64,000 nt of DNA from an uncultured Pseudomonadales bacterium. GTDB lineage: Bacteria; Patescibacteriota; Microgenomatia; UBA1400; MFAQ01. Under the pieces are notes generated by a model. That model had not been told where the DNA came from and did not search any database. It worked only from the letters and a program-made list of their open reading frames with translations. Location of the stretch: the NCBI GenBank assembly GCA_964586045.1, contig CAZPFY010000001.1:154-64153 (forward strand). The letters are read 5' to 3'. Numbering within the stretch: the stretch's first letter is position 1; each line of letters begins with the position of its first letter. Below, in pieces: positions 1,919 to 62,838 of the stretch. Made by a program: the position numbers and the translations under genes.

Positions 1919-1963
1919 CACAAAATTCAAAAAATCAAAAAATCTAAAACGAAAAATAATGAA

Positions 1964-3054: not shown

Positions 3055-3109
3055 GCCTATTTCTCCTTTTGATTTGGTAAAGACCTTAACCTATATATTT
3101 TATCACAAA

Positions 3110-6836: not shown

Positions 6837-7596
6837 AGAAATAATTAAGTGGGGGAAGCTGACACCAATATATGATTTGTTGGGGAAGCGGTCGTATGCC
6901 CAGAGCGGGGAGGATGTGGTGGTGGATGCTATTTTGAATCGACAGAAGAGAGGCTTTTATGTAGACGTGGGGGCATATCACCCCAAAGTTTTTTCGAATA
7001 CTTATTTGTTTTATAAACGGGGATGGAAAGGGGTTTGTGTTGAGCCAAACCCGGGGGCAAAAATACTTTTTGAGATTGTGAGACTGAGAGATAGGTTTGT
7101 GGGGTGCGGGGTGGGGGAAAAAACTCAAAAACTCAAAAACTCAAAAACTCAAAATAATGTGATGGAATATTATGTTTTTGGGGAGGGGGCGACAAATACA
7201 TTTTCGAAAAAACAAAGAAATGAAAATATACGATCTTCAAGGAGACTCCTTGAAGTTAAAAAGATTCCGGTGAAAACCTTGAAGGAGATTTTGGATGAGA
7301 ATGTGCCAAAAGGGCAAAAGATTGATTTGATGAGTGTGGATGTGGAAGGGATGGATTTGGAAGTATTGAAAAGTAATGATTGGAAAAAATATCGACCGAA
7401 GGTGGTGATTGCGGAAGATATGACCGGCGTCATCGCGAAGCGTGAAATGCTGTGGCGATCCAGAAAGGGGATGGATTGCCACGGTTCGAGTACGAAACTC
7501 GCAATGACGAATGATAGTGTTGTTGGTTATTTGGTTGGGAAGGGGTATAGATTGGTAGGGATGACGGGGTATTCGATGATTTTTAGAATCGGCTGA
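6820..7596 (+). CDS. FkbM-family methyltransferase carrying an in-frame heptamer tract and a repeat-element insertion
   Basis: GFYVDVGAYHP, VCVEPNP and IDLMSVDVEGMDLEVLKS match the Methyltransf_21/FkbM pattern. The AAAACTC x4 tract at 7128-7155 and the repeat at 7467-7509 are translated in frame. Confidence 0.65.
   Translation: MMKFIEEIIKWGKLTPIYDLLGKRSYAQSGEDVVVDAILNRQKRGFYVDVGAYHPKVFSNTYLFYKRGWKGVCVEPNPGAKILFEIVRLRDRFVGCGVGEKTQKLKNSKTQNNVMEYYVFGEGATNTFSKKQRNENIRSSRRLLEVKKIPVKTLKEILDENVPKGQKIDLMSVDVEGMDLEVLKSNDWKKYRPKVVIAEDMTGVIAKREMLWRSRKGMDCHGSSTKLAMTNDSVVGYLVGKGYRLVGMTGYSMIFRIG
7128..7155. repeat. AAAACTC heptamer tandem tract (4 units) inside the FkbM-like ORF
   Basis: AAAAACTCAAAAACTCAAAAACTCAAAAACTCAAAA, translated as KTQKLKNSKTQN. 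Confidence 0.75.
7467..7509. mobile_element. MITE/RPE-like repeat, partial copy inside the FkbM-like ORF (in frame)
   Basis: GGGGATGGATTGCCACGGTTCGAGTACGAAACTCGCAATGACG, translated as RKGMDCHGSSTKLAMT. Confidence 0.6.
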
Positions 7597-31000: not shown

Positions 31001-31891
31001 GGCTGAGCTGGGTTTGGCTTGTTTGATGATTTGGTTGTAGCCCAAAATGCCCATGGTGGTGGTAGCGATTACAAGCAAGGCGAGATGGAAGTAGGGAGTA
31101 AAAGGAAGGGCATTGTACTTGTGGTAAAAAACTGCCAAACGGCTTTTGGAGGGATTCTGAGGGTTTTTGGGTTTGGGAATAAGGCGATTGAGCCAGGCTA
31201 AGGGAGTAATTTTGGCTTCGGTTACGGTAATTTCAAAAGGATCCTTGGGAATTAGACTGCGGTTAAAACAAAAGTGAGTAAGCTTTTTAATAGATGATTG
31301 TCGTCTGCTGATAACAGAAGAGCTGGCGCGGGTTAGTTTTAGATAAGCAATGTAACTAGCTAATTGTTCGGTACTTAAAACTTGTTCGAGGTGGCTAGCG
31401 TTAAAAGGAGTTTGATTGGCAATCCAAGAAAAATAGTGATAAAGATCTGAAAGATAGTTTTTGACGGTAGAATGAGTTTTCTTTTCGTTTATTAATTGTT
31501 GTTTGAATTGTTCAAGAATTTTTTTGCTTGAAAGGTCCTTATTGTTGTTTGCATTGTTTGATGTATTTGGAGTTGGTTCGGATAAAGTTTCTATTTTGGT
31601 GATTTGATACTTGATGTTTAAGAAATTGGATAGTCTTCTGATGGAAGCAAGTCTGCGATTGGTGGTTGCGGGTGGTGTGAGAGTAGAGGATTGTTCCTGA
31701 CTGTATTTGCTGATGTATATTGATAGGTTTTGAAATACTTCGGTAAGATTAAACTGCTTTTGAGATTCCAAAAAGCGAAGAAAGTGCCTAACATCACTAA
31801 GGTAGTTTTTTATGGAAACAGCTGAAAGCCCAGACTCAATAAGAAATGAAGTGAAGAGCTTTAGGATTTCGGTATTGTTGGGCAGGTTCAT
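22046..31891 (-). CDS. giant (3281 aa) surface protein: two tandem integrase core-binding-like N-terminal domains, TM anchor, Gly-rich beta-helix-like regions, internal ~750-aa tandem duplication, C-terminal fibre-like region
   Basis: Uninterrupted 9.8-kb ORF. The two core-binding-like motifs are SIKNYLSDVRHFLRFL and TVKNYLSDLYHYFSWI. The TM is FHLALLVIATTTMGILGY. There are long GGGGG/GGAGG tracts and duplicated modules (ETLRIASVSTSTITFTT... / ETLRISSLAGNVITFTT..., and YFEDEDITN... / YFEDEDEATV...). Confidence 0.85.
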   Translation of the reverse strand: MNLPNNTEILKLFTSFLIESGLSAVSIKNYLSDVRHFLRFLESQKQFNLTEVFQNLSIYISKYSQEQSSTLTPPATTNRRLASIRRLSNFLNIKYQITKIETLSEPTPNTSNNANNNKDLSSKKILEQFKQQLINEKKTHSTVKNYLSDLYHYFSWIANQTPFNASHLEQVLSTEQLASYIAYLKLTRASSSVISRRQSSIKKLTHFCFNRSLIPKDPFEITVTEAKITPLAWLNRLIPKPKNPQNPSKSRLAVFYHKYNALPFTPYFHLALLVIATTTMGILGYNQIIKQAKPSSAATSLTAPRRQLSFQGRLSDSSGTPINTAVNVNFKLWNHLTAGSQLYTTGTCSVTPDSDGVFNSLIGDSVCGSEIPQSVFSDNRDVYLAVTVGAETLTPRQQIATVGYALNSETLQGYPASASATINTVPVIDNSGNLNIAASSPSIVSTSGNFNLKGQSISLTTATNSGGDIVIQPDAIGSGQILAIGGTTTEDTFRTTNANLTTGSLLSGYIGNDIATGSGKLILLSSGATESAKFWVLADGRTSINTATGSAVTSALTVNQNGTGSLFSASASGITKFNISNLGAINMINGVAHSISDVAGNLSLQSAGGNVYISNTSSLQINSAANLIFGGTTTLAESTANNDSGAYLIGVFDEFSNSNSLTVQGVLKDLDTEITNQNIAENWLSSNGAIYPKNSTLDLLVGGQSTLSANFSFLNNNLGTPVASIAGTTYLTGNGTLGTTRRQTLTLGNSSTYNTTGNILLNPNGTGNIGIGTTTPTSKLDVAGDASTSGSLTFRGASPTINVLNGADLSFATSQGGDAGLLTFLKILNSGDLVPGANDETTLGISGTAWKNLFLSQGINNHLGVEQISIANRQLTGTAGTQWNVTSNLRVGDSTNSMPSNMEFYVNGDAKISSTLTIDGTANPALTIGNGTTGTALIGSSTISDAGTTYLSFNTNSTGGDEFRINDSGTITLQSLTAIPTGVAGSIYYNSATISGNLNNVHTIGNTGSLFMYGQDSVWHRLAMDMTAYSTQSATLSGGYVEIAHNQNTNDLSLTGWFYDTVTSLWKKISDWTTTTNQDLAMVNTTSSSTNKLKTTNIALSSTYVYGTGSDGAIAITTDTNINTANSITGRSCADGGDAVNYSVTALTPTTATLSTTPSTGCLSAGDEVLLINLQGTSTKYLNVGNYETLRIASVSTSTITFTTAKNKTYGDDPGNDTNLGTATTNQRVMLQRVPNYTDVTLSNAGTDFTASVWTAPKGGVMFFRASGTVTVPTGTTVNTNSAGYNGGTGGISNNPSDGGESYCNANGGGGGADYDNNPVGSVGICGGGGGGGVNAATLYNANIAGSSIGGAGGGGGSAGAATGASGYGYGGGGAGGGYGTIGNGGKSGNTPTSDGVNGSGVTSGNGGTSAWTTTTGPAYAGGGGGGGTYGDTYLDKAYFGSGGSGGGAGDTGTTTYVASNGGAGGKGGGILMISAATLSVTSTGGIQSNGGAGSAAATATYPGSGGGGAGGSVKIVADTVTTSTTDLITAAGGAGDTTAVDGGTGGVGRIAVSYKNTLTANSSEPDFPTSPYLHQSGYYGIYVSKEINTTGAVNLNSFAYTETLNTYGQVEAQTRTGNTPDSTDGSWEAWKPVVTTTNIKNLNAMDATADWTATNLNAVADGTLARNVNYFEDEDITNAANKSIKLGSVGAENGYAEDTITSTDLTNFDLISAWVYATASGQIKLGIGESAATEQEEIIQIDATGTWQKVYWDISDVASASKNAITKLRITLLSPNQTVYVDSLQSEELIVASGTAPTSTPKNYFQYRFILTSSNGQATPSISNISLTYSDGASHTIDASSIRLANSTDYYSSSHLTVSETALSALSNSGITSNATGVTQAGDYDPGNGADGAGTVTSGTKVLSTDSIVGRTCADAINYSVNTLTSTTATLSTIPSTPSCLKTGDEILLINLQGTQGSIVNVGNYETLRISSLAGNVITFTTSKGKYYGDGAGDDTNLGIGVNNQKVMLQRVPNYTSVTVDSSATLSPSAYDYTTGLGGVLFFRAISAVSVAGSINATGKGYPGGTGAISTTTRSIPGHSLFYTSGVDGDGGTPLTPNNLGQNGVYSGGGGGGRHLTDGIGTGGVGTSTTGAGGGGGAGSASSNGSSYNGYGGGGGGGGYAAGGSGGTGPTIASNGDTNQSGSGTSGGSVGSGFGGGGGGGGAGNYGESSLGKLYLGSGGGGGGAGQATTGTYYSGLAGGGGGGIVIINSDTISVSGSILSKGDDSLTGTAASTQGGGGAGAGGSIKILGNTLSLGSSLVSSNGGAQIAGLSNFEGGSGGDGRVAIYYASTLTGTTSPAAAVAQTPSYNYSMYISEEMPTPNSTGYNKIKWLADLDTYGMIELQTRSGKSANSIDGTWEAWKPVVANTNKLDVIDMNTDTLWGMVDLTRADGGVARNVDYFEDEDEATVGNMTKFSSVGSPNGYSETTVTAKDLTNYDYLTAWVYATSSGNLVKFGFGESTGTEQEKTFYIQAANTWQKIYWDLTDINTTNRNAVTKLRISLPSTNTTLYVDNITADRYLTNADGSTVSSTPNEYFQYRAILTTTNPAYHPTLRSVQLDWSNGFKIVQTDMNTVRLYNKTGETIQIRLDAVVYGADLAEWYTVEDPSIEAGDLVAITGKTDPFGVPILRKTSSPNDQYLVGAISTKAGQELGITAENRRLLGLAGRIPVKIDPSSQDIKAGDSLTSSPLPGFATKAMPNDKVIGTAFEDWIPNIGKGVVLIHINNGIAPNPTTFSSRVYRLISNTNELFDETAGRFVNTVGSFAKVITGSISTNQLVSPTIETSFLTPMASTASITISPNLLSDNTQPLLIVEGQIKASTVFAKQGNFDELNTNSIVTNTITADKIYANQIEGLDAKIASLSSSFNNEEITILTNQISLKLNQNHATSSSSIASEIINNLKLGSNIVMNLLIDNLTVQQKLITPIADIDQLKVNIATVSGTLYANNIKSETIDKLKAQLDVLNEKYSTASSIFASIQEKYSQYDSLFSALDSETNPTNDPLQLSSLATESASLPTDMAFKNLNIEVLTTNDILANGSIFSQSISSFGTDLFIQPSGDKPVHLLANLMTLYPNGQIVVDGDLIVTGNIFANNLDTRTATVSGTLAVGKGELATDSAKILALFNQDGNVVGSVDASGSANFDKLTTYGLVIASGNNLDSTISGQTSSNSTIGTASIATGSSEIFINSSKINDDTLVYITPISDTNNQVLFVKSKQSHVGFTIAIPQPIEDEISFNFWLVQTK
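24000..28550. repeat. approximately 2.3-kb tandem duplication (two copies) within the second giant gene, including Gly-codon (GGN) rich tracts
   Basis: Two homologous ~750-aa protein modules with matching order of motifs. The plus strand shows CCACCACC runs at about 25.0-25.7 kb and 27.3-28.0 kb. The boundaries are approximate. Confidence 0.55.
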
Positions 31892-44865: not shown

Positions 44866-44875
44866 GCAAAAAATT

Positions 44876-44898
44876 GCCTCCCATAAGGGAGGTCTTTT
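44876..44898 (+). terminator. rho-independent terminator after the M16 peptidase gene
   Basis: GCCTCCCATAAGGGAGGT hairpin followed by CTTTTCG. Confidence 0.6.
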
Positions 44899-45052
44899 CG
44901 ATTGGGAATCTGCAAGGGTTAGGGTATTCAATACTTCATGAGTAAGCTCCGTTGCACGGCCTTATCGGCAATTAGTCCGGTTACGCTGGAAAGCGGCCAC
45001 CTGGTTTTTTGAATCAGTTAGGAGCAAATGGCTCCATACCAGGGTGCTAATA

Positions 45053-45110
45053 GGTAGTATTATAACCTATAGTTGCTAATTTGTCAAGTTGGGGAATTTT
45101 TGGCAAAAAA
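45053..45110 (+). repeat. conserved intergenic motif copy A (GGTAGTATTATAACCTATAGTTGCTAATTTGTCAAG, then TTTTTGGCAAAAAAA)
   Basis: Near-identical ~35-bp motif found four times in the window. It may be a promoter or operator. It is immediately followed by a bidirectional terminator-like hairpin at 45112-45165. Confidence 0.6.
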
Positions 45111-45615
45111 ATAACCTGTGTCCATCAGCTTTCGCTATTGATGACTACAGGTTTTTTTGGTTTCGGCTTAAGTATCCGTAACGTTGGCGGCCGCGCTCCC
45201 CACTTTCTGGCGTCCCAACGTGTTAGGTCCTTTATCGCTTCTATGTGTCCTGGGAAGAGGATACTCTGATGAATGTGGAATCTCAACAGATGTCAATTTC
45301 TCCCGATCACCACTGAAAAGCGGTGTTTTAACTTGTCCAAACTACTCTACGCTCCGAGGTTAATCGGGCACTAAGATTCCTTTTTAAGGCCGCTTAATAG
45401 AGATTTACGCTTGGTGATAAGTTTGCTGGACTACGGTGCATAGCCCCACAGGCCTCGTCAATGGACGTCTTACCTTACCTGTGGGGCCACAATATCATTT
45501 TGATTTTTAATGCTCCTTTTTTACACCGGCTCGGCCGGGCTATTGAGGCGCGACTTTGTGCACCAAGGCTTTTTTTGAACCTGGGTTGTAAGAGGGGCGG
45601 GTTGCCCTTCTTGAT

Positions 45616-45674
45616 GAGGTTATTATATCTCATAATGTATCTGTGTCAATAACTAGTTTTTTTGGCAAAAAAAA
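45616..45674 (+). repeat. conserved intergenic motif copy D (divergent; TATTATATCTCATAATGTATCTGTGTCAAT, then TTTTTTGGCAAAAAAAA)
   Basis: Shares TATTATA, CTATA/TCATA, TGTCAA and the TTTTTGGCAAAAAAA extension with copy A. Confidence 0.45.
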
Positions 45675-46131
45675 TGCCAGGTAAGCGATGCAAGCGCGAT
45701 AGTGTCTCGACTAATCTGAGCCACTATGGTTGATATCGTCAGTACCTGGCAGGCCGGTTTTCGGCTGATGGCGACTCTCGTGAGTATCCCCCGAGAGAGT
45801 GCGAACCCATACGAATGGGTTATTCACCGTTATTAGCGGTGCAGCTTTTAAACTCATTGATTGACTCAGCGGGGGATTCCCGTGAAGTGCTTCAGATGAA
45901 GTTTCGCAATTGGGATAAGAATCTATATCACAATTTTGAGCTGCACGAGGGCTTTTCTCCTTTCTTTTCCGCTCAGGGGCGGGTTATTGCCGGCGATCGT
46001 GCCGGACTGTTTTTTTGTGTCCATCGACGCAGGTTCCTGCCTGGAGGGCGAGGATATCGGTGGACGGTGCAGTTTGGCGGATTTTCCGTTCGGGATAGTC
46101 GTTCAAGAGCATCCCTTATCAAACCAAATAT

Positions 46132-46167
46132 GGGAGTATTCTAGCCTATAGTTGCTAATTTGTCAAG
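46132..46167 (+). promoter_or_regulatory. conserved intergenic motif copy B, probably overlapping the promoter of the 46208 gene (TTGCTA, 17 nt spacer, TAGAAT)
   Basis: GGGAGTATTCTAGCCTATAGTTGCTAATTTGTCAAG, with TAGAAT 17 nt after TTGCTA. About 40 nt upstream of the ATG. Confidence 0.5.
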
Positions 46168-46207
46168 ACGATGGTAGAATTGGCCATCCTAATAGTTTGG
46201 AGGAACA

Positions 46208-46450
46208 ATGAAAATTAAGCTTGGTATTACTGGTTTGTATCTGTTTGTTTTGGCGGCCGTTCTGTTTCTTGCCAAAACAATTGATTTGCCTTACGGGTAT
46301 ATCCCGCAGTGGGCCGGATACATTGGTTTGGGGTTGATGTTCCTTGGTATCGTGTTCATGGCCATTGATTCTGGTCCGTGGAACAGAATCAAGAAATCAG
46401 GCGATCACGATGCACCGTTTCGGATAAGGAAGCCAAAAAAAGAAGAGTAA
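46208..46450 (+). CDS. small membrane protein (2 TM helices)
   Basis: 80 aa with a GGAGG RBS, followed by a strong terminator. Confidence 0.5.
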   Translation: MKIKLGITGLYLFVLAAVLFLAKTIDLPYGYIPQWAGYIGLGLMFLGIVFMAIDSGPWNRIKKSGDHDAPFRIRKPKKEE

Positions 46451-46474
46451 AAATAAGTTTATCTGTTTGAAACT

Positions 46475-46503
46475 GAGACGCCGTAAGGCGTCTCTTTTAT
46501 TTG
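46475..46503 (+). terminator. rho-independent terminator
   Basis: GAGACGCC-GTAA-GGCGTCTC hairpin followed by TTTTATTT. Confidence 0.75.
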
Positions 46504-46561
46504 GGGGAATCGTAAGAATGGAGTTGCAAATTTTGGAAAATGAAGGTATAGATTAGAGCTA

Positions 46562-47152
46562 ATGAGTGATACAAAAACTGGACCGAGGGAGTATCGTCCC
46601 TTGAGTATTCCTGGAGCAACAATAATAAGGCCAAAATTAAACGTGGGTAAGTATGATGGTTGGTTGATTGAGCCGGTGGATTTTTCGGAAGCTAGTTACT
46701 ATTTGGGATATAAATTTGATCCGAGAAGTATGTATGCTACGTGGGCGCCTGAGGGAATTGTCCGCGGTGGTCATATGGAGAGTAGGTCCAAGTTGGTAAC
46801 GATATTGTCTGGTTTGGTTTATTATGTTTTGGTAGATATGCGACCAGGAGAAAATCAGGGTAAGGTGGAGCAGTTTTATTTGGGTGATGGGATAGAAGAG
46901 GCATGGGGAAGATCTGTTTTGGTTCCAGAGGGGGTAATTGATGCTTATGTGGTGGTCAGTGAAAATGCATTGCATTTGGGAGTTGGAGATCAGCCCTATA
47001 ACGCTTTTTATTCTTTGAAGACACTTGACTTGTTTGATAAGAACCTTGGAATTAATTGGCCGGTTATTGGTGATAGAGCAACATACAACGATTCGCATAG
47101 AGATAACCAAGTGGTTTTGCCAAAAGAGGAATTTATAAAAAGTTTGTATTGA
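46562..47152 (+). CDS. RmlC-like cupin (dTDP-4-dehydrorhamnose 3,5-epimerase-like) protein
   Basis: 196 aa. The RmlC-type pattern is RGGHME, then KLVTILSGLVYYVLVDMR, then GRSVLVPEGVIDAYVV, then INWP. Confidence 0.6.
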   Translation: MSDTKTGPREYRPLSIPGATIIRPKLNVGKYDGWLIEPVDFSEASYYLGYKFDPRSMYATWAPEGIVRGGHMESRSKLVTILSGLVYYVLVDMRPGENQGKVEQFYLGDGIEEAWGRSVLVPEGVIDAYVVVSENALHLGVGDQPYNAFYSLKTLDLFDKNLGINWPVIGDRATYNDSHRDNQVVLPKEEFIKSLY

Positions 47153-47155
47153 GAT

Positions 47156-48208
47156 ATGGATAAAAATAATTTACAAAACGATGCAGCTTATGAGGTAGCT
47201 TCAATGAAGAGTAGTGCCAGGTATTGGTTTAAGCGAGATTTTTGCGACATTCGACATGGTAAGGACAGATCGATTTTGATTGCTTTGGAAAAGGCTGGTT
47301 GGAGTGGTGATAATGGGTTGGGTCAATTGCCTTGGAACATCCGAGTTGAGGACAAAAGGTCTTTTCAGGCTTGGAAGTTGGGAATTTTGAGTATTAACGG
47401 TGAAGATAAATTGGTTTTTGAGAGATTTTTGAGAGGTATAAGCGGAGTTAAAACAGATACATTTAATTTATCTTACTTGCCCAATTGGATAATTGAGGAG
47501 TTGGAGCAAGTGGCTTTGGAAATAACTCAGAGGGATTTCGAAAAAGAAGCAGGTGAGTTTGTGGAGAAAATAGCGCGACAAGCAAAAGAGGAAAAACAAA
47601 GTCAAAAAGCAACTTTGTCGGCTAAAGTAGAAGAACTATCGATTGGTGGTTTATTTCATATCATGTCGCAGACGCGAGGCGACGAGAGGGGAAGTTTTCG
47701 GGAGGTAGCCAGAATGCCGGAAATAGAACTTTTGACGGGTTATGATTTTGTGGGGAAGCAAGTAAATCACTCAATGTCCACCTATGGAATTTTGCGAGGG
47801 ATGCACGTAGAACCTTGGGCAAAACTGGTAACGGTGATTCATGGTTTTGCGGTTTCTGTTTTGCTTGATTGCCGTTTGCATTCCAGAACCTATGGCAAGA
47901 TGGAGACTATCTTTTTGGGTTATGGAAAAGCACCGGACGGAGAAGAAGTAAAAGGAGGAGCCCTGTTTATAGAGCCAGGAATTGCGAACTCTGTTTTGGT
48001 TTTATCTGAGAAGATGGATTATCAATATGTAGTTGATGATTTGTGGAGGCCTGAGACAGCACTTTACTCGGTTAATCCCATGGATTCTGAACTAGCAATT
48101 GATTGGGGCAAATATGTGTCTTTGGACAAAATAACCAGGTCGGAAAGAGATACCAAGTCGCCAACATTCGCTGAGTTTACTAAATTAATGAAAGAAAATG
48201 GAAAATAA
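47156..48208 (+). CDS. two-domain protein: unknown N-terminal domain plus C-terminal RmlC-like cupin (sugar-nucleotide epimerase/isomerase-like)
   Basis: 350 aa. The C-terminal half has DERGSF, then LRGMHVEPWAKLVTVIHGFAVSVLLDCR, then ALFIEPGIANSV, then AIDWG, matching the RmlC-like order. Confidence 0.55.
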   Translation: MDKNNLQNDAAYEVASMKSSARYWFKRDFCDIRHGKDRSILIALEKAGWSGDNGLGQLPWNIRVEDKRSFQAWKLGILSINGEDKLVFERFLRGISGVKTDTFNLSYLPNWIIEELEQVALEITQRDFEKEAGEFVEKIARQAKEEKQSQKATLSAKVEELSIGGLFHIMSQTRGDERGSFREVARMPEIELLTGYDFVGKQVNHSMSTYGILRGMHVEPWAKLVTVIHGFAVSVLLDCRLHSRTYGKMETIFLGYGKAPDGEEVKGGALFIEPGIANSVLVLSEKMDYQYVVDDLWRPETALYSVNPMDSELAIDWGKYVSLDKITRSERDTKSPTFAEFTKLMKENGK

Positions 48209-48569
48209 AAATATGAAAGTAGTTGCGGTTGATTTTGATGGGGTAATTCACAAATATTCTAAGGGTTGGGGCGATGGCAGTATTTACGATGTTGCGGTTG
48301 AGGGGGCAAGCGAGAGTTTGGAAAAATTGGTTGCTGACGGATGGAAGGTAATTATTTTTACTACCAGACTTAATCCAGAAGTTAATGAAGATATTTTGCT
48401 GGAGAGAAATAAAATGATGAAGTGGTTACATGATAATGGTATTATTTTGAATCGACATTTTCACGAAATAACGGCGGTGAAGCCATCGGCGAAATATTAT
48501 ATTGATGACAAAGGGATTCGGTTTACTGACTGGGAGGCAACTATCAAATTTGTAAGCGAAAATGCCTGA
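48198..48569 (+). CDS. small HAD-superfamily hydrolase (nucleotidase/phosphatase-like)
   Basis: 123 aa. HAD motif I is VVAVDFDGVIH. A Lys/Asp-containing C-terminal motif (YIDDKG) is consistent with motif III/IV. Confidence 0.55.
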   Translation: MENKNMKVVAVDFDGVIHKYSKGWGDGSIYDVAVEGASESLEKLVADGWKVIIFTTRLNPEVNEDILLERNKMMKWLHDNGIILNRHFHEITAVKPSAKYYIDDKGIRFTDWEATIKFVSENA

Positions 48570-49173
48570 AGTACAAGAAATGTTTGTTAGTGAAGAGAGT
48601 GAGAAAACAGATGAGCTGTTGCGAATAGTGAAAGAGACGAAAAATATGCGTGGTGAGCCGATATATGAAAATTCTGAAATTAGTTTGCGCGAGTTTGACC
48701 CCAAAGATTTACATCCTTCGGCGGTTTATATGTTGGAAGCTAACTTAGAGTTTCTTGAGGCAATGTACTATGACTTGTTTAAAGAAGGAATCGATATTTT
48801 TAATTTGGATCAAATTGTCGAAACAGAGAAATATGGCAAAATTGCTCCGCCAATTGTAGAGATGGCAGTAGATGAAAAAGGTAATCGGGTCCCGACAATA
48901 GTGGATGGAATTCATAGGTCAAAACTAGCGATGTATTTGGGAAAGAGAATAAAAGTGGTTTTGATTGATGGGGTTAACCCTGATTATCCCTTGATTGGTT
49001 TGCCGGCTGATTGGGATGAGGTCAAAATTTACAGAGGGAAGCCTCAGGCTGAGCCAGAACTGAGAAAGTTACGACCAGGCATGGTGGGATTGGAAGACAA
49101 AAGCCATCTCTTTAGAAATCTGGAGCCAGTGGGGGCGAACAAGAGACAGTTGATGGCTTGGCAGAAGGGGTAG
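48562..49173 (+). CDS. ParB/sulfiredoxin-fold (ParB-like nuclease domain) protein
   Basis: 203 aa. PPIVEMAVDEKGNRVPTIVDGIHRSKLAMYLGKRIKVVLIDG contains the DG.HR signature of the ParB N-terminal domain. Confidence 0.45.
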   Translation: MPEVQEMFVSEESEKTDELLRIVKETKNMRGEPIYENSEISLREFDPKDLHPSAVYMLEANLEFLEAMYYDLFKEGIDIFNLDQIVETEKYGKIAPPIVEMAVDEKGNRVPTIVDGIHRSKLAMYLGKRIKVVLIDGVNPDYPLIGLPADWDEVKIYRGKPQAEPELRKLRPGMVGLEDKSHLFRNLEPVGANKRQLMAWQKG

Positions 49174-49321
49174 GTGAGTTGACTTTTGACCCATAGTGTG
49201 ATAGAATACCCAATCGAGGAAGTTCATTGATTTAATATGTTTTAGTTGTCATTTTCTCTTGTTTACGCTCTTCTAAAAGAATGCGTGTGATAAGAAAAGA
49301 TGGCTAATTTGCGGAGGCAAA

Positions 49322-50140
49322 ATGGCAGATTGGAAGGAGTTGCTTGCCCAGTGGCAGCAAAATATTGAACGTAAATACCCAAAGTTGGTTGGAACGAAGG
49401 CGCTGCTTGGTGTAGCTGCCTGGTATAACCGTGTTCTTAACGAATTGGGTGACTACACCATTGAAGAGGCACCGATGGAAGATGCTCTCTGGAAAGTGGT
49501 TCACGATGACGACGGCAAACATTTGCGCATTGAGAGATACGATGGTACTTTTTTTAGAGTTATCAGCGTACTTTGTCGCAAGGGTAAGTCTACTTGGCTA
49601 CAGCCGGTACTGGAAAGCATCCATTCGCTCATGAAAGTGGTGTTGTGGGGTGAAGAGGTAGAGGTGCCGGTTTATGGACTGTTGATGGTCATTCGTGACA
49701 GTGAAGGCAAGATTTTGCTATCAATAGGCCAAGAAACCATGGCTGATACACCCAAGAAAGCGGTGGTTAGATTGCCCCTGCAAGCATCTTGGGGAAAGAT
49801 TTTGTTGATGCTGGCCGGGAAGGCGAGTGATGTAAGTATCGAAGCCTTGATGGCGATTTATGACTGCCAAACCGTGCAAGAGCTGTTAGCCCTTGCTGTC
49901 GAAAGAGGGCGAGAGCCTTTTGAGGATTTAGATCGTGGTTGGAAAAACAATGTCGTTTGGATTATGCCGACCGTACAGGTTGGTACCGAACTTCACGAAA
50001 AACTGACCTCGAACGGATCCATGATGTGGGTTGATCCTTTGCAGTGGAAGATTATCAAGATGTCGGGACTGACGGGTTTGCATACAGTTGGTCCTATTGA
50101 CATGATGTACACGTTGGATGCTCTGAAGGAATACGAGTAA
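49322..50140 (+). CDS. hypothetical protein (noticeably higher GC and Trp content than neighbours)
   Basis: 272-aa ORF with no recognizable motif. Local GC is visibly higher than the window average. Confidence 0.45.
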   Translation: MADWKELLAQWQQNIERKYPKLVGTKALLGVAAWYNRVLNELGDYTIEEAPMEDALWKVVHDDDGKHLRIERYDGTFFRVISVLCRKGKSTWLQPVLESIHSLMKVVLWGEEVEVPVYGLLMVIRDSEGKILLSIGQETMADTPKKAVVRLPLQASWGKILLMLAGKASDVSIEALMAIYDCQTVQELLALAVERGREPFEDLDRGWKNNVVWIMPTVQVGTELHEKLTSNGSMMWVDPLQWKIIKMSGLTGLHTVGPIDMMYTLDALKEYE

Positions 50141-50149
50141 TTTTGTTGA

Positions 50150-50180
50150 GACTGTCTTTGATTAGGCAGTCTTTTTTTTG
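50150..50180 (+). terminator. rho-independent terminator
   Basis: GACTGTCTTTGATTAGGCAGTC hairpin followed by TTTTTTTT. Confidence 0.75.
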
Positions 50181-50386
50181 TGCCAAAATTTAGTTTAAAA
50201 AAAAGAATCCCCGCTCTGGAGCGGGGTTCGGTTGGGGTGAAGTAGGTTGCTTGGCCTAAGTGTCTGTTGTCGCACCGTCGAAACGCAACAGTGGGGCTTA
50301 GCGGGCTCTAATCACACCCTTTTGGGTATGGAAGGAGGGGGAACCTCCTTTTTCGGGGCTGGATTTCCAGCAAAAGTTAAGTTGTA

Positions 50387-50421
50387 GGAGTATTTTATCC
50401 TATAATTGTTTATTTGTCAAC
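50387..50421 (+). promoter_or_regulatory. conserved intergenic motif copy C upstream of the 50525 gene
   Basis: GGAGTATTTTATCCTATAATTGTTTATTTGTCAAC is the same motif as copies A and B. Confidence 0.45.
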
Positions 50422-50524
50422 TTGGGTGGCTTGGGGCGATATTTATGATATCTTGTGCCTAAAATATGACAACTGATATGACAACTGACGAAATGTACTT
50501 GACAACTATATTTAAACTGTTAAA

Positions 50525-51565
50525 ATGTATTGTATAAGTATGACCATACAAGATCAGATAATAAAAATCGCAACAAAAGAGGGAACTGTTAGGACCGCTG
50601 ATGTTTTAAAGAGTTTAAAGCCTGCGGTAACTAGGGGATACTTGAGTTTAATAATGTCTCGAATGACAAGAGATGGTTTGCTAGTGAAAACAGGATCAAC
50701 TTCAAAGTCTGTATATGCTTTGTATAAAAATGGAGATTTGCTGGGAAATGTCTTTAAAAAGCATTTGGCTAGAAGCACCACAAAAGAACATGAAGTACTG
50801 GATGTGCTTAACAGAAAAGTGCCTTTTTTGTTTAAATTGGATGAAAACTTGAGAAGCATTTTGGATTTTTCTTTTTCTGAAATGTTAAATAACGCCTTAG
50901 AACATTCTGAATCAAAGTATATTGACATTAAGGTATTTGTTGATTCTAAATACCTGAATTTTACTGTGTCTGACCTTGGTATTGGTGTTTTTAAAAATGT
51001 AATGAAGAAGAGGGGTTTGGGGTCGGAATTCGAGGCCATGCAGGATATTTTGAAAGGAAAAACTACCACTCAACCCCATGCACATTCTGGCGAAGGAATC
51101 TTTTTTACTTCAAAAATGGCTGACATATTTGTTTTGGAAAGTTATGGATACTCGATGAGAGTGGATAATATAATTCCTGATATATTTTTTGAGCAAGTTA
51201 AACCGATTAAAAAAGGAACGAGAGTGCATTTTTGCATTAGAAGAGAGACTGATAAACACTTGAAAGATACTTTTATGAACTACGAAACTGATCACGAAGA
51301 TCCCGATTTTGACAAAACAGAGATTCACGTAAAACTATATAAAATAGGCACGGTTTACGTATCTCGATCACAAGCTAGGAGAATTTCATATGGTCTTGAG
51401 AAGTTTAATCACGTTGTTTTGAACTTTGAAAAAGTACCAACTATCGGACAAGCTTTTGCAGACGAGATATTTAGAGTTTTTAAAAATAAATATCCAAATA
51501 TTTTGATTACCTCTATTAATATGAATGAGGCGGTTAAGTATATGGTTAATAGAGCGAGTAAATAG
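50525..51565 (+). CDS. HATPase_c (GHKL, anti-sigma-factor/RsbW-like) ATP-binding protein with N-terminal wHTH-like region and C-terminal STAS-like (DUF4325-like) domain
   Basis: EMLNNALEHS (N-box), VSDLGIGV (G1) and SGEGIFFTS (G2). The C-terminus VVLNFEKVPTIGQAFADEIFRVF is STAS-like. Confidence 0.5.
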   Translation: MYCISMTIQDQIIKIATKEGTVRTADVLKSLKPAVTRGYLSLIMSRMTRDGLLVKTGSTSKSVYALYKNGDLLGNVFKKHLARSTTKEHEVLDVLNRKVPFLFKLDENLRSILDFSFSEMLNNALEHSESKYIDIKVFVDSKYLNFTVSDLGIGVFKNVMKKRGLGSEFEAMQDILKGKTTTQPHAHSGEGIFFTSKMADIFVLESYGYSMRVDNIIPDIFFEQVKPIKKGTRVHFCIRRETDKHLKDTFMNYETDHEDPDFDKTEIHVKLYKIGTVYVSRSQARRISYGLEKFNHVVLNFEKVPTIGQAFADEIFRVFKNKYPNILITSINMNEAVKYMVNRASK

Positions 51566-51568
51566 AAT

Positions 51569-51808
51569 TTATTTTTTTGGCTTGGGGGGGTGTTTGGCCT
51601 CGGATTGTTTGATGCTGGTGCAGATGGGGCAGAGGGTTGGTTTGTCGGTTGACCAGTTTGTCGGTTGACCAGTTTGTCGGTTGATCGGTTTGTCGGTGTT
51701 TCGGAGTTGCTCGTAGACGGAGTAGACAAAAGGATTGCCACAGTTTTCGCATTTTAGAAGTTGGTCTTGCATGAGAGTATTATATCCGCTAAGGGTGGAA
51801 GAGTACAA
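51569..51808 (-). CDS. small zinc-ribbon protein with an in-frame 17-bp tandem repeat expansion
   Basis: CENCGN...CPIC forms the Cys4 pair. The central repeat encodes NRQTGQPTNWSTDKLVNRQT variants. Confidence 0.45.
   Translation of the reverse strand: MYSSTLSGYNTLMQDQLLKCENCGNPFVYSVYEQLRNTDKPINRQTGQPTNWSTDKPTLCPICTSIKQSEAKHPPKPKK
51640..51700. repeat. 17-bp tandem repeat (GTTTGTCGGTTGACCAG, about 3.5 copies)
   Basis: Direct inspection. Copies are at 51640, 51657 and 51674, plus a partial fourth. Confidence 0.85.
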
Positions 51809-51844: not shown

Positions 51845-52570
51845 TTAAATGCGATTGGCAAGCATTTTTTTGTAGTCTGATTCGGAGAGGTAGATGGATA
51901 GACGTTCGTAGTTTTCATCACCGAAAACCGCGCCGTCCCAATCGATACCTAAGAGGTTTTCTTTGAGATATAGACTGTCATCGGTTTCAAAATCTGCCGC
52001 CAAATAGTCCTCGGTAAAAACAACTTCCAAAATGGGATTTTGAAGAGTGTCGTCTTTGAAGAAATCAACGTCCTTTACTCGGAGGCGGAAGGAAACCATT
52101 TCGCCGGTGCAGAGTGTTGTGGAGATCTCGACCAGATCGTTCTCTGAGTCGTAACCATTGATGCTGATTTCTTTTCTGTCGCCGAACTGGAAGAACTTTG
52201 CGATGATCGACATGTTGGTGTAGTCTTCGAGGCCGTTTGCCTTTAACCAGATTTCAAATTCTTCCTCCAGGTTGATGGCAAACTCTTCTTCGTCGCTGGT
52301 GAGTACATCTTCTTCCAAAACTTCTTCTTCGAGAACCTCTTCTAAATCTTCTGTTTCCACAATGGTGCCATTTTCAGCTACATTAACGACAGGTGAAGGA
52401 ATGTTGTACCCCTGAACGTAGCTGGACATATCGCGAGGTTGATTGTACCTTTTTATGGCTAAATAGCCTTGCCAGACGGCGACCCCTACAAGAGCCAATA
52501 CGAAAACGAGGATTAAGAACTGACCAAATCCGGTGCACCAAAATGAGATTGATTCAAGACCACATGACAT
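51845..52570 (-). CDS. membrane-anchored acidic hypothetical protein
   Basis: 241 aa. N-terminal TM (FLILVFVLALVGVAVW), then a Glu/Asp-rich region EEVLEEEVLEEDVL. Confidence 0.5.
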   Translation of the reverse strand: MSCGLESISFWCTGFGQFLILVFVLALVGVAVWQGYLAIKRYNQPRDMSSYVQGYNIPSPVVNVAENGTIVETEDLEEVLEEEVLEEDVLTSDEEEFAINLEEEFEIWLKANGLEDYTNMSIIAKFFQFGDRKEISINGYDSENDLVEISTTLCTGEMVSFRLRVKDVDFFKDDTLQNPILEVVFTEDYLAADFETDDSLYLKENLLGIDWDGAVFGDENYERLSIYLSESDYKKMLANRI

Positions 52571-54472: not shown

Positions 54473-54958
54473 TTATTGAAACTTAAGGCCGGCGTTGTAT
54501 TTTTCGAACTGAGTTTTTGTACAGTGGATGTTGAGATGTTTAATGCCGCTATAGACTAGGTCGTCCCAGTCCATAGGGCCATAAGCTTTTTCGTCCAAGT
54601 AATTATCACAAAACTCGATGTTGCAATCGGGGACGGTTGGAAGGAGGGCACTGTGCTCGGGATCGATAAAAAATTTGATTTTGTCGCGGTATATTCTAAA
54701 GGGAACCGCCTGTCCATCCTTTGGGTTTCTCAAGTAAACACTAAATTGATATTCACTTTCTCTTATAATGCTTACGACTTCAATTCCCTTTTGAAAGAGG
54801 AATTGAAGGTTGGTTAATAGCACTTCTCGACGAGTGGGGAGTTTGTCTTCTTTGGCAATGAGGTGGTTGACAAATCGGACCAAGGCAAAGATGAAGATGG
54901 CGGCCAAAATAAGGCAGGGCCAGGTGGTACAGATGAATGCATATTTTTCGCAGAACAT
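54473..54958 (-). CDS. membrane-anchored hypothetical protein
   Basis: 161 aa with an N-terminal TM (ILAAIFIFALVRFV). Confidence 0.45.
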   Translation of the reverse strand: MFCEKYAFICTTWPCLILAAIFIFALVRFVNHLIAKEDKLPTRREVLLTNLQFLFQKGIEVVSIIRESEYQFSVYLRNPKDGQAVPFRIYRDKIKFFIDPEHSALLPTVPDCNIEFCDNYLDEKAYGPMDWDDLVYSGIKHLNIHCTKTQFEKYNAGLKFQ

Positions 54959-54974
54959 GAATGATCTCCTCGAT

Positions 54975-55529
54975 TTATGCGTGGTTGGGATTTGTGAGGC
55001 TTTCGAAAACAGCGTCGTACTGTGCTTGAGTTACGCTAACTTCGATATTTGACGCCATCTTGAATATTTTTTCGATGGTGACGTTTTTCATTGCTGCTTC
55101 GAGATCGCCGTCGGAGTAATAGCCGCAACTGAAATCGTTTTGGAGTAAAGATTCGTCGTAAATGAAATGCGCGTTGGGCTTGTCTGCGTATGGATTAATA
55201 ATCCAATTAACGGTATTGAGATCAACTTTGATGCCTACAATAGTGCGACCCACTTGTACAGACAGAGTAATGTCTCTATCCTCCCAGTCGACTTTGGGAA
55301 TGCCAATAACATACCAGCTTCGAACACCAAACAAGATTTCAATTATTGATCTGTTGCTGCGATTGGGGAGATTTTTTTTCCTTAACCATTCCTGGTTGGC
55401 TGTTTCGATTTGGTCCTTTGCTTTTTGAGCCTTACGATTCTCGATGGTGGTGAATAGCCAAATGATTAGTCCAACTGCAACCAAAATGGCTGCCACGATA
55501 AGTGCTGCAATCAGTTTTGAATTTTCCAT
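54975..55529 (-). CDS. membrane-anchored hypothetical protein
   Basis: 184 aa with an N-terminal TM (LIAALIVAAILVAVGLIIWLF). Confidence 0.45.
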   Translation of the reverse strand: MENSKLIAALIVAAILVAVGLIIWLFTTIENRKAQKAKDQIETANQEWLRKKNLPNRSNRSIIEILFGVRSWYVIGIPKVDWEDRDITLSVQVGRTIVGIKVDLNTVNWIINPYADKPNAHFIYDESLLQNDFSCGYYSDGDLEAAMKNVTIEKIFKMASNIEVSVTQAQYDAVFESLTNPNHA

Positions 55530-57677: not shown

Positions 57678-58184
57678 CTATGGATTTACGGTTTGATAGT
57701 CAATGGGGCGGTCGGTGTCGGTGGCGGCGTTGGCACTTACGATAAATTGGCCAATGGTTTTACTTTTGACGGTGTAGAGAGATTTATCGCCTTCTTTGCT
57801 GATTAAATATATTTGACTGTTTTCTAAAACGGCGGGATCTGAAATGGATATTTCTTGTTGGCCAGCAGGGAGAATAAATGATTTTTGGGTAGCGTTGCTT
57901 TGGGTGTTAGCGGATGAACTGGCATCGTTTGTGGTGTCTGGGGCGGCGATGATGGGTTTGGTGAATGATTCGGCTACGTCAGCGCGCCCTTCGGGCTTGT
58001 CGGAATTTGAGATTATGCCTTGGGGAAGAGGAGAGATAAGAGATCCTGTGGGCAGGCTGGAGTAGTAGCCTAAGACAATTAAGGTGGCGGGGACAAAGAA
58101 GAAGAGACAGGAGGCGACCAAAAGAGCCACGGAAAGGGTGGATTGGGACTTGGCTGGGGTGGCGTTGGTAAATTCGATAGTCAC
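57678..58184 (-). CDS. membrane-anchored hypothetical protein
   Basis: 168 aa with TM LSVALLVASCLFFFVPATLIVLGYY. Confidence 0.45.
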   Translation of the reverse strand: MTIEFTNATPAKSQSTLSVALLVASCLFFFVPATLIVLGYYSSLPTGSLISPLPQGIISNSDKPEGRADVAESFTKPIIAAPDTTNDASSSANTQSNATQKSFILPAGQQEISISDPAVLENSQIYLISKEGDKSLYTVKSKTIGQFIVSANAATDTDRPIDYQTVNP

Positions 58185-61203: not shown

Positions 61204-62838
61204 TTGAGATACAATAAAATCATGTTGGCACGAATTGAGAGCGTGGCTTGTGTGGGACTAGAGAGTTTTTTGGTGGAGGTAGAAGTGGATGTGGCGGAGA
61301 AGGGCTTCCCCGGGTTTAGTATTGTGGGGCTGGCTGACAAAGCGGTGGGTGAGGCAAAAGAGAGAGTAAAAACAGCCTTGATTAATAGTGGTTTTGAGTT
61401 TCCACAGAAGAAAATAATCGTCAATTTGGCACCGGCCGATCTGCCTAAGGAGGGATCGGCGTTTGATTTGGCGATTGCTATGGGGATTTTGGTGGCTAAT
61501 GGGGATATCGAGATAAAAACTCAAAAAATCGAAAACTCAAAAACTCAAAATATCGCTCAAAACTCGGAGATTGCTTCGGTTCGGAATACCGAAACTCGCA
61601 ATGACGACGTGGAAAGTAGCGATATATTTTTTGGGGAGTTGTCGCTCGATGGGAGTTTGCGACACACCAAAGGGGCACTTTTGGTAGCTCTTTTTGCCAA
61701 AAAAGAGAAGAGGAGGAGAGTGTTTGTGCCGGTATTGTCGGCGAATGAGGCGGCGGTAGTGCCTGGAGTAGAGGTAATGCCGGTGAGGAACTTAAAAGAA
61801 CTAATAGTTCACTTTTTGGGAGATAAGAAGATAAAACCTCTGAGAACAATTGAAATAAAAAGCTTGGTGGAAACGGCGATGCCAGACTTTGACATGGCGG
61901 ATATTGTAGGCCAGGAATCGGCGAAGCGAGCCTTGATGGTAGCGGCGGCTGGGGGACACAATATGCTCATGTCTGGGCCACCAGGATCGGGTAAAACCAT
62001 GCTCTCCAGGGCTTTACCTGGAATAATGCCCCCGATGACCGAGGAGGAGAGTATGGAGGTTACTAGGGTTTACTCGGCTTCGGGATTGATGGAAGCGGGA
62101 GAAGCGATTGTGCGCAGAAGGCCATTTCGGTCGCCTCATCACTCGACGAGCCTTGCTGGCTTAATAGGAGGTGGCAGTAGGCCTATGCCTGGGGAAGTGA
62201 GCCTCGCTCACTTGGGGGTATTGTTTTTGGATGAGATGGCGGAGTTTCCCCGGAGCGTGTTGGAGGCCATGAGGCAACCAATGGAGGATGGGAAGGTGGA
62301 GATATCAAGAGTAGCCGGGAGAATTAGCTATCCTGCGTATTTTCAGCTCATTGCTGCGGTGAACCCGTGCCCTTGTGGCTATTTGGGGCACCCAACTAAA
62401 GAATGTAAGTGTACGAGTAGAGAGGTTGAGAAGTATAAAAGAAGGATAAGTGGGCCTATTTTGGATAGAATAGATTTGCATATCAATGTCCCGGCGGTGG
62501 AGACAGAAAAGATCGTGGGGAATGTAGAAAAGGGAGAAAGCTCTCTGGTGATTAGACAAAAAATTGTCAAAGCGCGACAAATTCAAAGCACAAGGTTTGG
62601 TAAAGGGAAAATTTATTGCAATGCCCAGATGAAAAACAAGCAAGTGAAGGAGTTTTGCGATCTGGATGAGGAGGGGTTAAAAATCCTGAAATTAGCCATG
62701 GAAAAGTACGATCTGTCGGCCAGGGGCTACTTTCGGATTTTAAAGGTGGCCAGGACGATAGCGGATTTGGAGAATAGTGAGAAGATTTTGAGCTCGCATT
62801 TGGGGGAGGCGCTGCAGTACCGGGAGAGGGTGTTTTAG
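61204..62838 (+). CDS. comM: YifB/ComM-family Mg-chelatase-like AAA+ ATPase with an in-frame heptamer-tract plus repeat-element insertion
   Basis: N-terminal Lon-like ChlI domain. Walker A is MLMSGPPGSGKTM. The insertion IEIKTQKIENSKTQNIAQNSEIASVRNTETRNDDVESS lies between the ILVANGDI and FFGELSLDG motifs, which are normally about 10 aa apart. Confidence 0.9.
   Translation: MRYNKIMLARIESVACVGLESFLVEVEVDVAEKGFPGFSIVGLADKAVGEAKERVKTALINSGFEFPQKKIIVNLAPADLPKEGSAFDLAIAMGILVANGDIEIKTQKIENSKTQNIAQNSEIASVRNTETRNDDVESSDIFFGELSLDGSLRHTKGALLVALFAKKEKRRRVFVPVLSANEAAVVPGVEVMPVRNLKELIVHFLGDKKIKPLRTIEIKSLVETAMPDFDMADIVGQESAKRALMVAAAGGHNMLMSGPPGSGKTMLSRALPGIMPPMTEEESMEVTRVYSASGLMEAGEAIVRRRPFRSPHHSTSLAGLIGGGSRPMPGEVSLAHLGVLFLDEMAEFPRSVLEAMRQPMEDGKVEISRVAGRISYPAYFQLIAAVNPCPCGYLGHPTKECKCTSREVEKYKRRISGPILDRIDLHINVPAVETEKIVGNVEKGESSLVIRQKIVKARQIQSTRFGKGKIYCNAQMKNKQVKEFCDLDEEGLKILKLAMEKYDLSARGYFRILKVARTIADLENSEKILSSHLGEALQYRERVF
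61515..61553. repeat. AAAACTC-type heptamer tract inside comM, immediately upstream of the repeat-element copy
   Basis: AAAAACTCAAAAAATCGAAAACTCAAAAACTCAAAAT, translated as KTQKIENSKTQN. Confidence 0.75.
61563..61605. mobile_element. MITE/RPE-like repeat, right-half copy inside comM (in frame)
   Basis: CTCGGAGATTGCTTCGGTTCGGAATACCGAAACTCGCAATGACG, identical over 43 nt to the 59562..59604 part of the intergenic copy. Translated as SEIASVRNTETRND. Confidence 0.7.

Follow-up and report, generated by a model that had tools for sequence, protein, structure and literature searches.

A predicted one-chain wHTH–GHKL–STAS regulator with phased upstream repeats, and a convergent zinc-ribbon gene with a 16-bp tandem repeat, in a Patescibacteria-type genome

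We analysed a 64,000-nt stretch of contig CAZPFY010000001.1 (hereafter the window), which is a chromosomal segment of a groundwater bacterium of the Patescibacteria (candidate phyla radiation, CPR) type, with respect to two genes that converge with 3 bp between their stop codons. The first, gene A, is predicted from sequence and modelling to combine a winged helix–turn–helix (wHTH) domain, a SpoIIAB-like GHKL ATPase domain and a STAS-like DUF4325 domain in one chain, and among the new results the most useful is an array of direct repeats, conserved and in phase with the helix, that precedes the genes of this wHTH–GHKL–STAS family. The second, gene B, encodes a small zinc ribbon whose central loop contains a 16-bp tandem repeat. 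Both are new members of known, uncharacterized families. On balance, and with some reserve, we favour an account in which they are independent genes lying tail to tail, gene A being an autoregulated one-chain regulator and gene B a ribbon lengthened by slippage which does not act as a switch.

Domain structure and family of gene A

Both open reading frames (ORFs) described at this locus in an earlier note, which was made from the sequence without database searches, exist where that note placed them, and its reading of gene A as a wHTH-like N-terminus followed by an anti-sigma-factor-like HATPase_c core and a DUF4325/STAS-like C-terminal domain was borne out by Pfam, by invariant motifs and by fold matches. 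The start codon of gene A was set at ATG 50540 by public gene calls and homologue alignment, and the −10 hexamer of a sigma70-like promoter (50521..50526) overlaps the upstream ATG at 50525. The full DUF4325 model of Pfam (PF14213) matched with an E-value of 4.3e-12 and 46 bits against a cutoff of 23. The EMLNNALEHS, DLGIGV and GEGIFF motifs are all found in the protein; in an alignment of 42 homologues E114, N117, N118, H122, D145, G147, G149, G184 and G186 were invariant, and N box residue A119 and the lid/G2 segment KGKTTTQPHAHSGEGIFFTS were invariant or nearly so. Precomputed HATPase_c and HATPase_c_2 matches are also present on many of the homologues.

An AlphaFold2 model of the gene A protein (mean pLDDT 81.6) gave an N-terminal predicted topology of alpha1-beta1-alpha2-alpha3-beta2-beta3, i.e. 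that of a wHTH domain. When this model was compared with the PDB using Foldseek, the best matches were the SpoIIAB structures 1til, 1tid, 1th8 and 1l0o, with target-normalized TM scores of 0.64-0.74 (0.70-0.74, at probability 1.0, for the first three), and lower-ranked matches comprised the STAS proteins RsbS (6jhk_B) and RsbV (6m36/6m37; probability 1.0) and winged helices of the MarR/RbkR type. The alignment, the model and the structural matches therefore argue that the domain reading is correct. Two further searches gave nothing of use: NCBIfam profiles returned weak histidine-kinase-like noise only, and the DUF4325 profile run against the PDB brought up insignificant helix-hairpin-helix-like matches to RecR and Hef (E 0.025-0.4), which were not relied upon. 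A scan for terminators after the gene A stop codon found only a weak terminator-like site with a 5-bp stem at 51587..51601 (+).

Homologues of gene A number 5,922 proteins at E <=0.001. The best 120 of these are all about 340-350 aa long with 50-72% identity, and those among the best 120 whose source is named come from the Patescibacteria group, Shapirobacteria, Doudnabacteria, CPR2 and Saccharimonadia; hundreds of near-full-length relatives keep both the length and the domain order. Gene A is thus a clear member of DUF4325, a family labelled ‘DUF4325 domain-containing protein’ by NCBI and ‘anti-sigma regulatory factor (Ser/Thr protein kinase)’ by JGI. We found no functional study of DUF4325 in the literature searched, where PF14213 and zf-trcl, the latter the former name of the gene B family, likewise gave nothing.

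The known proteins closest in design are SpoIIAB and RsbW, with which gene A shares the GHKL fold and the N, G1 and G2 boxes, and the C-terminal domain matches the STAS domains of RsbS and RsbV. In Bacillus the kinases (SpoIIAB/RsbW) and their STAS partners (SpoIIAA/RsbV) are separate proteins, whereas in gene A the kinase-like and STAS-like parts are fused behind a wHTH domain. The earlier note had also proposed partner-switching with separate partners, and this part did not hold: no sigma factor, separate STAS or PP2C gene occurs in the window or adjoining five other family members. Gene A also departs from the Bacillus systems in that its Pfam kinase-domain scores lie below cutoff. In all six genomes examined it was a stand-alone gene with different neighbours each time. 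By analogy with SpoIIAB–SpoIIAA, we infer that the kinase-like and STAS-like domains may form an intramolecular, ATP-dependent partner switch which would set the DNA-binding activity of the wHTH domain.

Phased direct repeats upstream of gene A

The putative sigma70-like promoter of gene A matches 11 of 12 consensus positions, and the last of three upstream copies of the direct repeat TGACAACT overlaps its −35 hexamer (Table 1). This motif was observed seven times in the window against 1.9 expected; three of the seven lie within 41 bp ahead of gene A and the four others are scattered singly. We also examined the five orthologous loci L005, L008, L010, L012 and L014 (~6-11 kb each; repeat starts in Table 1 are exact matches), and these data show that all six loci, the window included, carry 3-7 phased direct repeats upstream of the gene, the motif differing from locus to locus. 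All of the copies are oriented with the gene and the arrays stop at a TTGACA-like −35 element just 5′ of the start codon. The start-to-start spacings across loci are 11-12, 21, 32-33, 43 and 56 bp; sites set apart by multiples of ~10.7 bp share a single helix face. There was no second cluster of the motif in the five other loci, with zero extra copies in L008, L010, L012 and L014 and two isolated ones in L005.

Such an arrangement is what would be expected for head-to-tail co-operative binding by a winged-helix protein, and the upstream repeats are probably a candidate autoregulatory operator for gene A's own wHTH domain. In the 42-homologue alignment conservation is lowest in the N-terminal domain, a pattern that would fit a DNA specificity that drifts along with the repeat motif. 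In the six sequences the putative recognition helix (residues 31-44) begins with S/T-R for motifs containing ACAA or ACAT, and with T-K for the motif TTAAAAC, although this pairing is suggestive only. A single reverse copy of TGACAACT stands in the intergenic region at 49244..49251 (−), ahead of the 272-aa ORF (49322..50140) that lies just before gene A; this copy may be another target or may have arisen by chance.

Winged-helix factors of the OmpR/PhoB type bind tandem direct repeats with ~11-bp phasing, beside or in place of the −35 box. The gene A repeats are like these sites in being direct, in the same orientation, spaced at ~10.7-bp multiples and ending at the −35 element. This is a resemblance and not a membership, as gene A is without a receiver domain and its wHTH domain is N-terminal and nearest to the MarR/RbkR type. 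We found no mention of phased repeats upstream of DUF4325 genes in the DUF4325 literature searched. In the mechanism that we propose, the wHTH domain would bind the upstream repeats head to tail in the manner of OmpR/PhoB and so regulate its own gene.

The zinc-ribbon gene and its 16-bp tandem repeat

Gene B matches the zf_Tbcl family of Pfam (PF13451, formerly zf-trcl) with 26.6 bits against a cutoff of 24. The earlier note had described a 79-aa Cys4 zinc ribbon, and the Cys4 ribbon is indeed real, but the start is likely to be ATG 51772 (67 aa) and not TTG 51808 (79 aa), because every homologue begins M-x-D. A TATAAT hexamer read from the sequence ends 6 nt upstream of this ATG, and −10-like hexamers stand in the same position in the related loci L001, L002 and L007, which suggests that gene B may be transcribed from a promoter of its own into an mRNA with little or no leader. 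By full-library profile and word-indexed searches we found ~40 relatives of 55-83 aa in Woesebacteria, Collierbacteria and similar CPR bacteria, some of them misnamed ‘cytochrome C551’ or ‘rubrerythrin’, that have in common the motif M-P-D-K-x-L-x-C-x-N-C-x-N-P-F-V-Y-S-x-Y-E-Q...P-x-Y-C-P-I-C-x-S-I-K...K-H-P-P-K-P-K-K, in which the Tyr of NPFVYS varies (Y/F). C8, C11 and C51 are invariant, and a few relatives have D in place of C48. Where orthologues differ in the knuckle regions, they do so mostly at synonymous positions, indicating that gene B is a real gene. Foldseek found nothing at E below 1 for the ribbon model.

The repeat in the centre of gene B had been described as a 17-bp unit in about 3.5 copies; Tandem Repeats Finder (TRF) showed instead a period of 16 bp and 3.6 copies, with a score of 102 that is the highest in the window. 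The copies start at 51640, 51656 and 51672 and are followed by a partial fourth, the third unit having two mismatches, and the 16-bp unit has at most 4 matches in the window against 0.66 expected by chance. The repeating NRQTGQPTNWSTDKLV units that had been claimed for the protein are absent from it. It reads TDKPINRQTGQPTNWSTDKPT, i.e. one pass of the unit through the three frames, in which four copies of the coding-strand core ACCGACAAAC give TDKP-INRQ-TGQPTN-WSTDKP, and the gain from the array is therefore exactly three units (48 nt). The array as a whole encodes residues 26-45, between the two zinc knuckles, which in the AlphaFold model form the lowest-confidence coil, with the confident first knuckle before them and the second-knuckle helix after. 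In silico, removal of 48 nt restored an intact 51-aa ribbon and changes of three units kept the frame, whereas gain or loss of one or two units moved into the other frames and lost the second CxxC; the earlier point that a change in copy number would shift the frame thus holds, for a 16-bp unit. As RNA, neither strand of the repeat region folded more stably than shuffled controls (z −0.39 and −0.97), and an Rfam search found two tRNA-Ala genes only.

The site of the array is one at which ribbon relatives recurrently carry insertions. Of 38 relatives, 29 have 13 residues between EQ and the second CxxC and the other nine have inserts of ~8-26 residues at one alignment column; against this usual loop of 13 residues in the zf_Tbcl family, gene B has 25, mostly from the 16-bp array. 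In L002, L017 and L019 the same site in the loop is occupied by 7-bp arrays of unrelated sequence, with about three extra units apiece (Table 1). The heptamer GTACCAT of L002 occurs both in the loop and directly upstream of the ribbon start (TACCATA x5.1, 1195..1230), and L018 has ATGTACCATGTA and then AAATATA x5.9 in the same upstream position (1455..1495); such promoter-proximal arrays could change promoter geometry.

Two public assemblies, ENA ERZ909580 (assembled anew from the groundwater reads SRR2177986) and JGI 3300009031, contain a 13,026-nt segment around the locus at 100% identity and with the same repeat copy number; with identity over ~13 kb, these assemblies are therefore probably from the same population. 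All eight orthologues of gene B are in frame, in a sample that is biased in that six of the eight were found via intact proteins. In scans of JGI metagenome contigs a ribbon protein pattern gave 65 matches, none of which was confirmed, and an exact ribbon DNA pattern gave none; a ribbon DNA pattern scanned against GTDB genomes found one locus, L007. We infer that the gene B repeat is a slippage-prone but tolerated loop: replication slippage in an unconstrained, disordered loop would have produced the array, with in-frame outcomes alone being kept and no working ON/OFF switch.

Homopolymer tracts are classical slippage sites. The 3′ end of gene B reads CAC CCC CCC AAG CCA AAA AAA TAA, with a C7 tract in the HPP codons and an A7 tract at 51572..51578, and the C7 tract is kept at the nucleotide level in seven of eight orthologues though other synonymous sites vary. 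A slip in these homopolymers would change the basic tail only.

Table 1 Features of the locus and of related loci (positions in the locus named)
Feature	Locus	Position	Strand	Details
Gene A	Window	50540..51565	+	341 aa; ORF opens at 50525
wHTH domain, gene A (predicted)	Window	about aa 1-80		
SpoIIAB-like GHKL ATPase domain, gene A (predicted)	Window	about aa 83-235		
GHKL/HATPase_c core	Window	50873..51244	+	N box E..NNA..H, G1 box D.G.G, lid/G2 KGKTTTQPHAHSGEGIFFTS
STAS-like DUF4325 domain	Window	about aa 259-341; profile match 51371..51538	+	
Sigma70-like promoter, gene A	Window	50499..50526	+	TTGACA, 16-nt spacer, TAAAAT, TG before −10
Direct-repeat array TGACAACT x3	Window	50464..50508	+	starts 50467, 50479, 50500; spacing 12, 21 bp
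Repeats upstream of gene A orthologue, TTAAAACC	L005	328, 340, 361, 373		
Repeats upstream of gene A orthologue, GTTTACAT	L008	4915, 4926, 4947		
Repeats upstream of gene A orthologue, T(T/G)ACAACTA	L010	4902, 4934, 4945, 4966		
Repeats upstream of gene A orthologue, GTTTACAA	L012	4924, 4956, 4967, 4988		
Repeats upstream of gene A orthologue, TCTTAAAAC	L014	4869, 4881, 4902, 4925, 4937		
Gene B	Window	51569..51772	−	67-aa zf_Tbcl protein, CxxC...CxxC, basic KHPPKPKK tail
TATAAT hexamer, gene B	Window	51779..51784	−	ends 6 nt upstream of ATG
16-bp tandem repeat, unit GTTTGTCGGTTGACCA (+ strand)	Window	51640..51697		3.6 copies, 95% match
C7 homopolymer, gene B	Window	51584..51590	−	coding strand, HPP codons CAC CCC CCC
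Loop arrays of ribbon gene	L002	1357..1386 (ATGTACC)		AGATCTC x4.6, ATGTACC x4.3
Loop arrays of ribbon gene	L017			AGTTCAC x3.6, CCAAGAA x4.1
Loop array of ribbon gene	L019			AGTTCAA x3.9
Gene block of ~6.7 kb	Window	44866..51565	+	ends with gene A; absent in related genomes between peptidase M16 and ribbon gene

Genomic setting and alternative readings

Besides the two genes, the window contains rho, obg, comEA/comEC, dprA, comM, peptidase M16, two genes of >3,200 codons and two tRNA-Ala genes. Gene A closes a block of ~6.7 kb made up of two small ORFs, two dTDP-sugar-isomerase-like cupins, an HAD-like gene, a ParB-CE gene, the 272-aa ORF and gene A itself, and this block is missing from related genomes; in L007 (M16 86% identical) and L018 the ribbon gene faces peptidase M16 directly. 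The adjacency of genes A and B is incidental, an accident of this 6.7-kb insertion. The site between ribbon gene and M16 varies among relatives, being nearly empty in L007 (2460..3099, with a 7/14-bp tandem array at the junction, 3062..3100) and L018 (1720..1770); L017 has a DUF4143 ATPase there, and L020 an IS200-type Y1 transposase.

Small proteins with an N-terminal membrane anchor precede the ribbon gene on the same strand (51845..52570, 54473..54958, 54975..55529 and 57678..58184, all −), interspersed with the tRNA-Ala genes and a TPR protein; the series had no Pfam match at E <=0.001 and is syntenic in L001 (64..4729) and L007 (1481..2212). The two giant ORFs, at 9271..19608 (−) and 22046..31891 (−), have 3,445 and 3,281 codons and many CCA/ACC triplet runs, and a 30-bp array in one of them (10091..10192) encodes ITPTPTEIITTTPTPT repeats. 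Both products are probably large surface proteins, as is typical of CPR genomes.

The 8-bp unit AAAAACTC matches the window 10 times, where chance would give 0.41, and is arrayed in 3.5-4.5 copies at four sites, all in + orientation (7119..7154, 61515..61550, 4576..4605 and 1922..1949). One such array is a 36-nt in-frame insert in an FkbM-type methyltransferase gene (aa 100-112, EKTQKLKNSKTQN) and another is a 36-nt in-frame insert in ComM (aa 104-116, IKTQKIENSKTQN), whose ChlI domain it divides, leaving a matched stretch on either side; the third, of 30 nt, lies on the opposite strand of a DUF4012 gene and the fourth directly past the rho stop codon. A related unit, TTGAGTTT x4.2, stands at positions 3..36 of L001. 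Candidate origins for these arrays are hypermutability, insertion of a preformed 36-nt element, or other causes.

Several results for both genes count against the account that we favour. For gene A, the profile searches with which the earlier note had proposed to check its domains placed DUF4325 above cutoff but left HATPase_c (E 3.2e-5, 24.8 versus 26.4 bits) and HATPase_c_2 (22.8 versus 27.4 bits) just under the Pfam gathering cutoff; the candidate phospho-site T301 (VPTIGQ) is Thr in 88% of the 42 homologues and M or N otherwise, and the PDB sequence search with the DUF4325 profile yielded no STAS alignment that would fix T301 as the equivalent of SpoIIAA Ser58; and the operator idea is drawn from six loci, by sequence only. 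For gene B, non-triplet arrays of at least 3.5 copies were 44-fold denser in ribbon genes (5 in 1.7 kb versus 9 in 137 kb, Poisson P about 1e-7, with 138 kb read), a figure that overstates the case as the ribbon loci were picked for long loops and are related to one another, and the three extra 16-bp units can be reached by slippage only via out-of-frame intermediates. Together, this enrichment and these intermediates appear to fit a hypermutable locus better than simple neutrality. They also speak for the view taken in the earlier note, in which the ribbon gene is a phase-variable contingency gene that slipped-strand mispairing toggles ON, at multiples of three units, and OFF, as do the length of the unit, which is not a multiple of three, with its consequence for the second CxxC, and the unrelated 7-bp arrays at the same loop site of relatives, with those of L002 and L018 also directly upstream of the start. 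We nevertheless consider phase variation unlikely. The array is short and its third unit imperfect, the copy number does not differ in the two other assemblies (probably one population), the repeat has no significant RNA structure, and the product is small and probably cytoplasmic and not a surface or restriction-modification function; no such switch is reported for Patescibacteria in the literature searched. A useful comparison is the NeuO O-acetyltransferase of E. coli K1, which has a phase-variable 5′ heptanucleotide repeat with alleles of 3-53 units, most commonly 20, and which is OFF in 65.6% of genomes, ±1 variants being measurable within cultures (PMC13001214). In both genes a non-triplet unit within the ORF is read in three frames and gives a full-length product only at multiples of three. 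In contrast with the variable and mostly OFF neuO, gene B has 3.6 units, no variation was observed and all eight orthologues are in frame, a comparison that is biased by their ascertainment.

A wider form of the same idea, that short non-triplet arrays serve this CPR lineage as hypermutable switches in several conserved genes, draws on the 16-bp array here, the 7-bp loop and promoter arrays in relatives and the in-frame AAAAACTC arrays in the ComM, FkbM-type and DUF4012 genes, and we judge it rather improbable. A similarly low probability attaches to the suggestion that gene A is not a housekeeping regulator but a stand-alone conflict module (defence, abortive infection or toxin–antitoxin-like) of variable islands. 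Gene A does end a block that is missing in related genomes, and its neighbours in other CPR genomes are often accessory genes (SocA_Panacea, Fic, AAA_21/AAA_15, RhuM, N6_N4 methylase, GIY-YIG and rve transposase); in addition, DUF4325 genes have been reported as transcriptionally coupled to a VapC/PIN group (PMC5499597) and within a Francisella prophage (PMC7924643). However, no PADLOC model matched gene A, gene B or four neighbours, tblastn of gene A found no match in 72,556 plasmids or 50,697 phages, gene A has no effector domain, and its degree of identity across CPR classes, with length and domain order unchanged, points to a cellular role that has been conserved. As to links between the two genes, the 16-bp units might serve as extra or decoy DNA sites for the gene A wHTH domain, as each contains TTGACCAGT, which agrees with the operator motif TTGACAACT at 7 of 9 positions, and the array lies 75 bp downstream of gene A. 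This is very improbable: a match of this kind in one 16-bp unit on two strands has an estimated chance of ~0.04, a 16-bp spacing alternates between helix faces, unlike the 11, 21 and 32 bp of the operator, and ribbon orthologues away from gene A also have loop repeats, of unrelated units, so that the units were rejected as operator copies on statistical and geometrical grounds. That the ribbon is the cognate partner or target of the GHKL–STAS regulator, the two forming a functional pair, is least credible of all. Its sole support is the convergent adjacency with 3 bp between stop codons; none of five other gene A loci adjoins a ribbon gene, none of seven other ribbon loci adjoins gene A, and the ribbon gene faces M16 directly in L007 and L018. 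The pair was therefore rejected as largely refuted by the missing co-occurrence.

For two independent genes lying tail to tail, the account that we favour, the meaning of each is separate. Gene B is mainly a caution, since a non-triplet repeat within an ORF can resemble a phase switch where the evidence, as here, is structural only; if lineage-wide switches did prove true, they would be the first contingency loci described in Patescibacteria, judging by the literature searched. Very few transcription factors have been characterized in Patescibacteria, and of the regulators predicted in this group the gene A family is one of the better conserved. Its fusion of HTH, anti-sigma-like kinase and STAS parts, together with the putative family-wide operator pattern, offers a testable model of gated DNA binding, and the operator architecture may allow target sites to be predicted from sequence alone.

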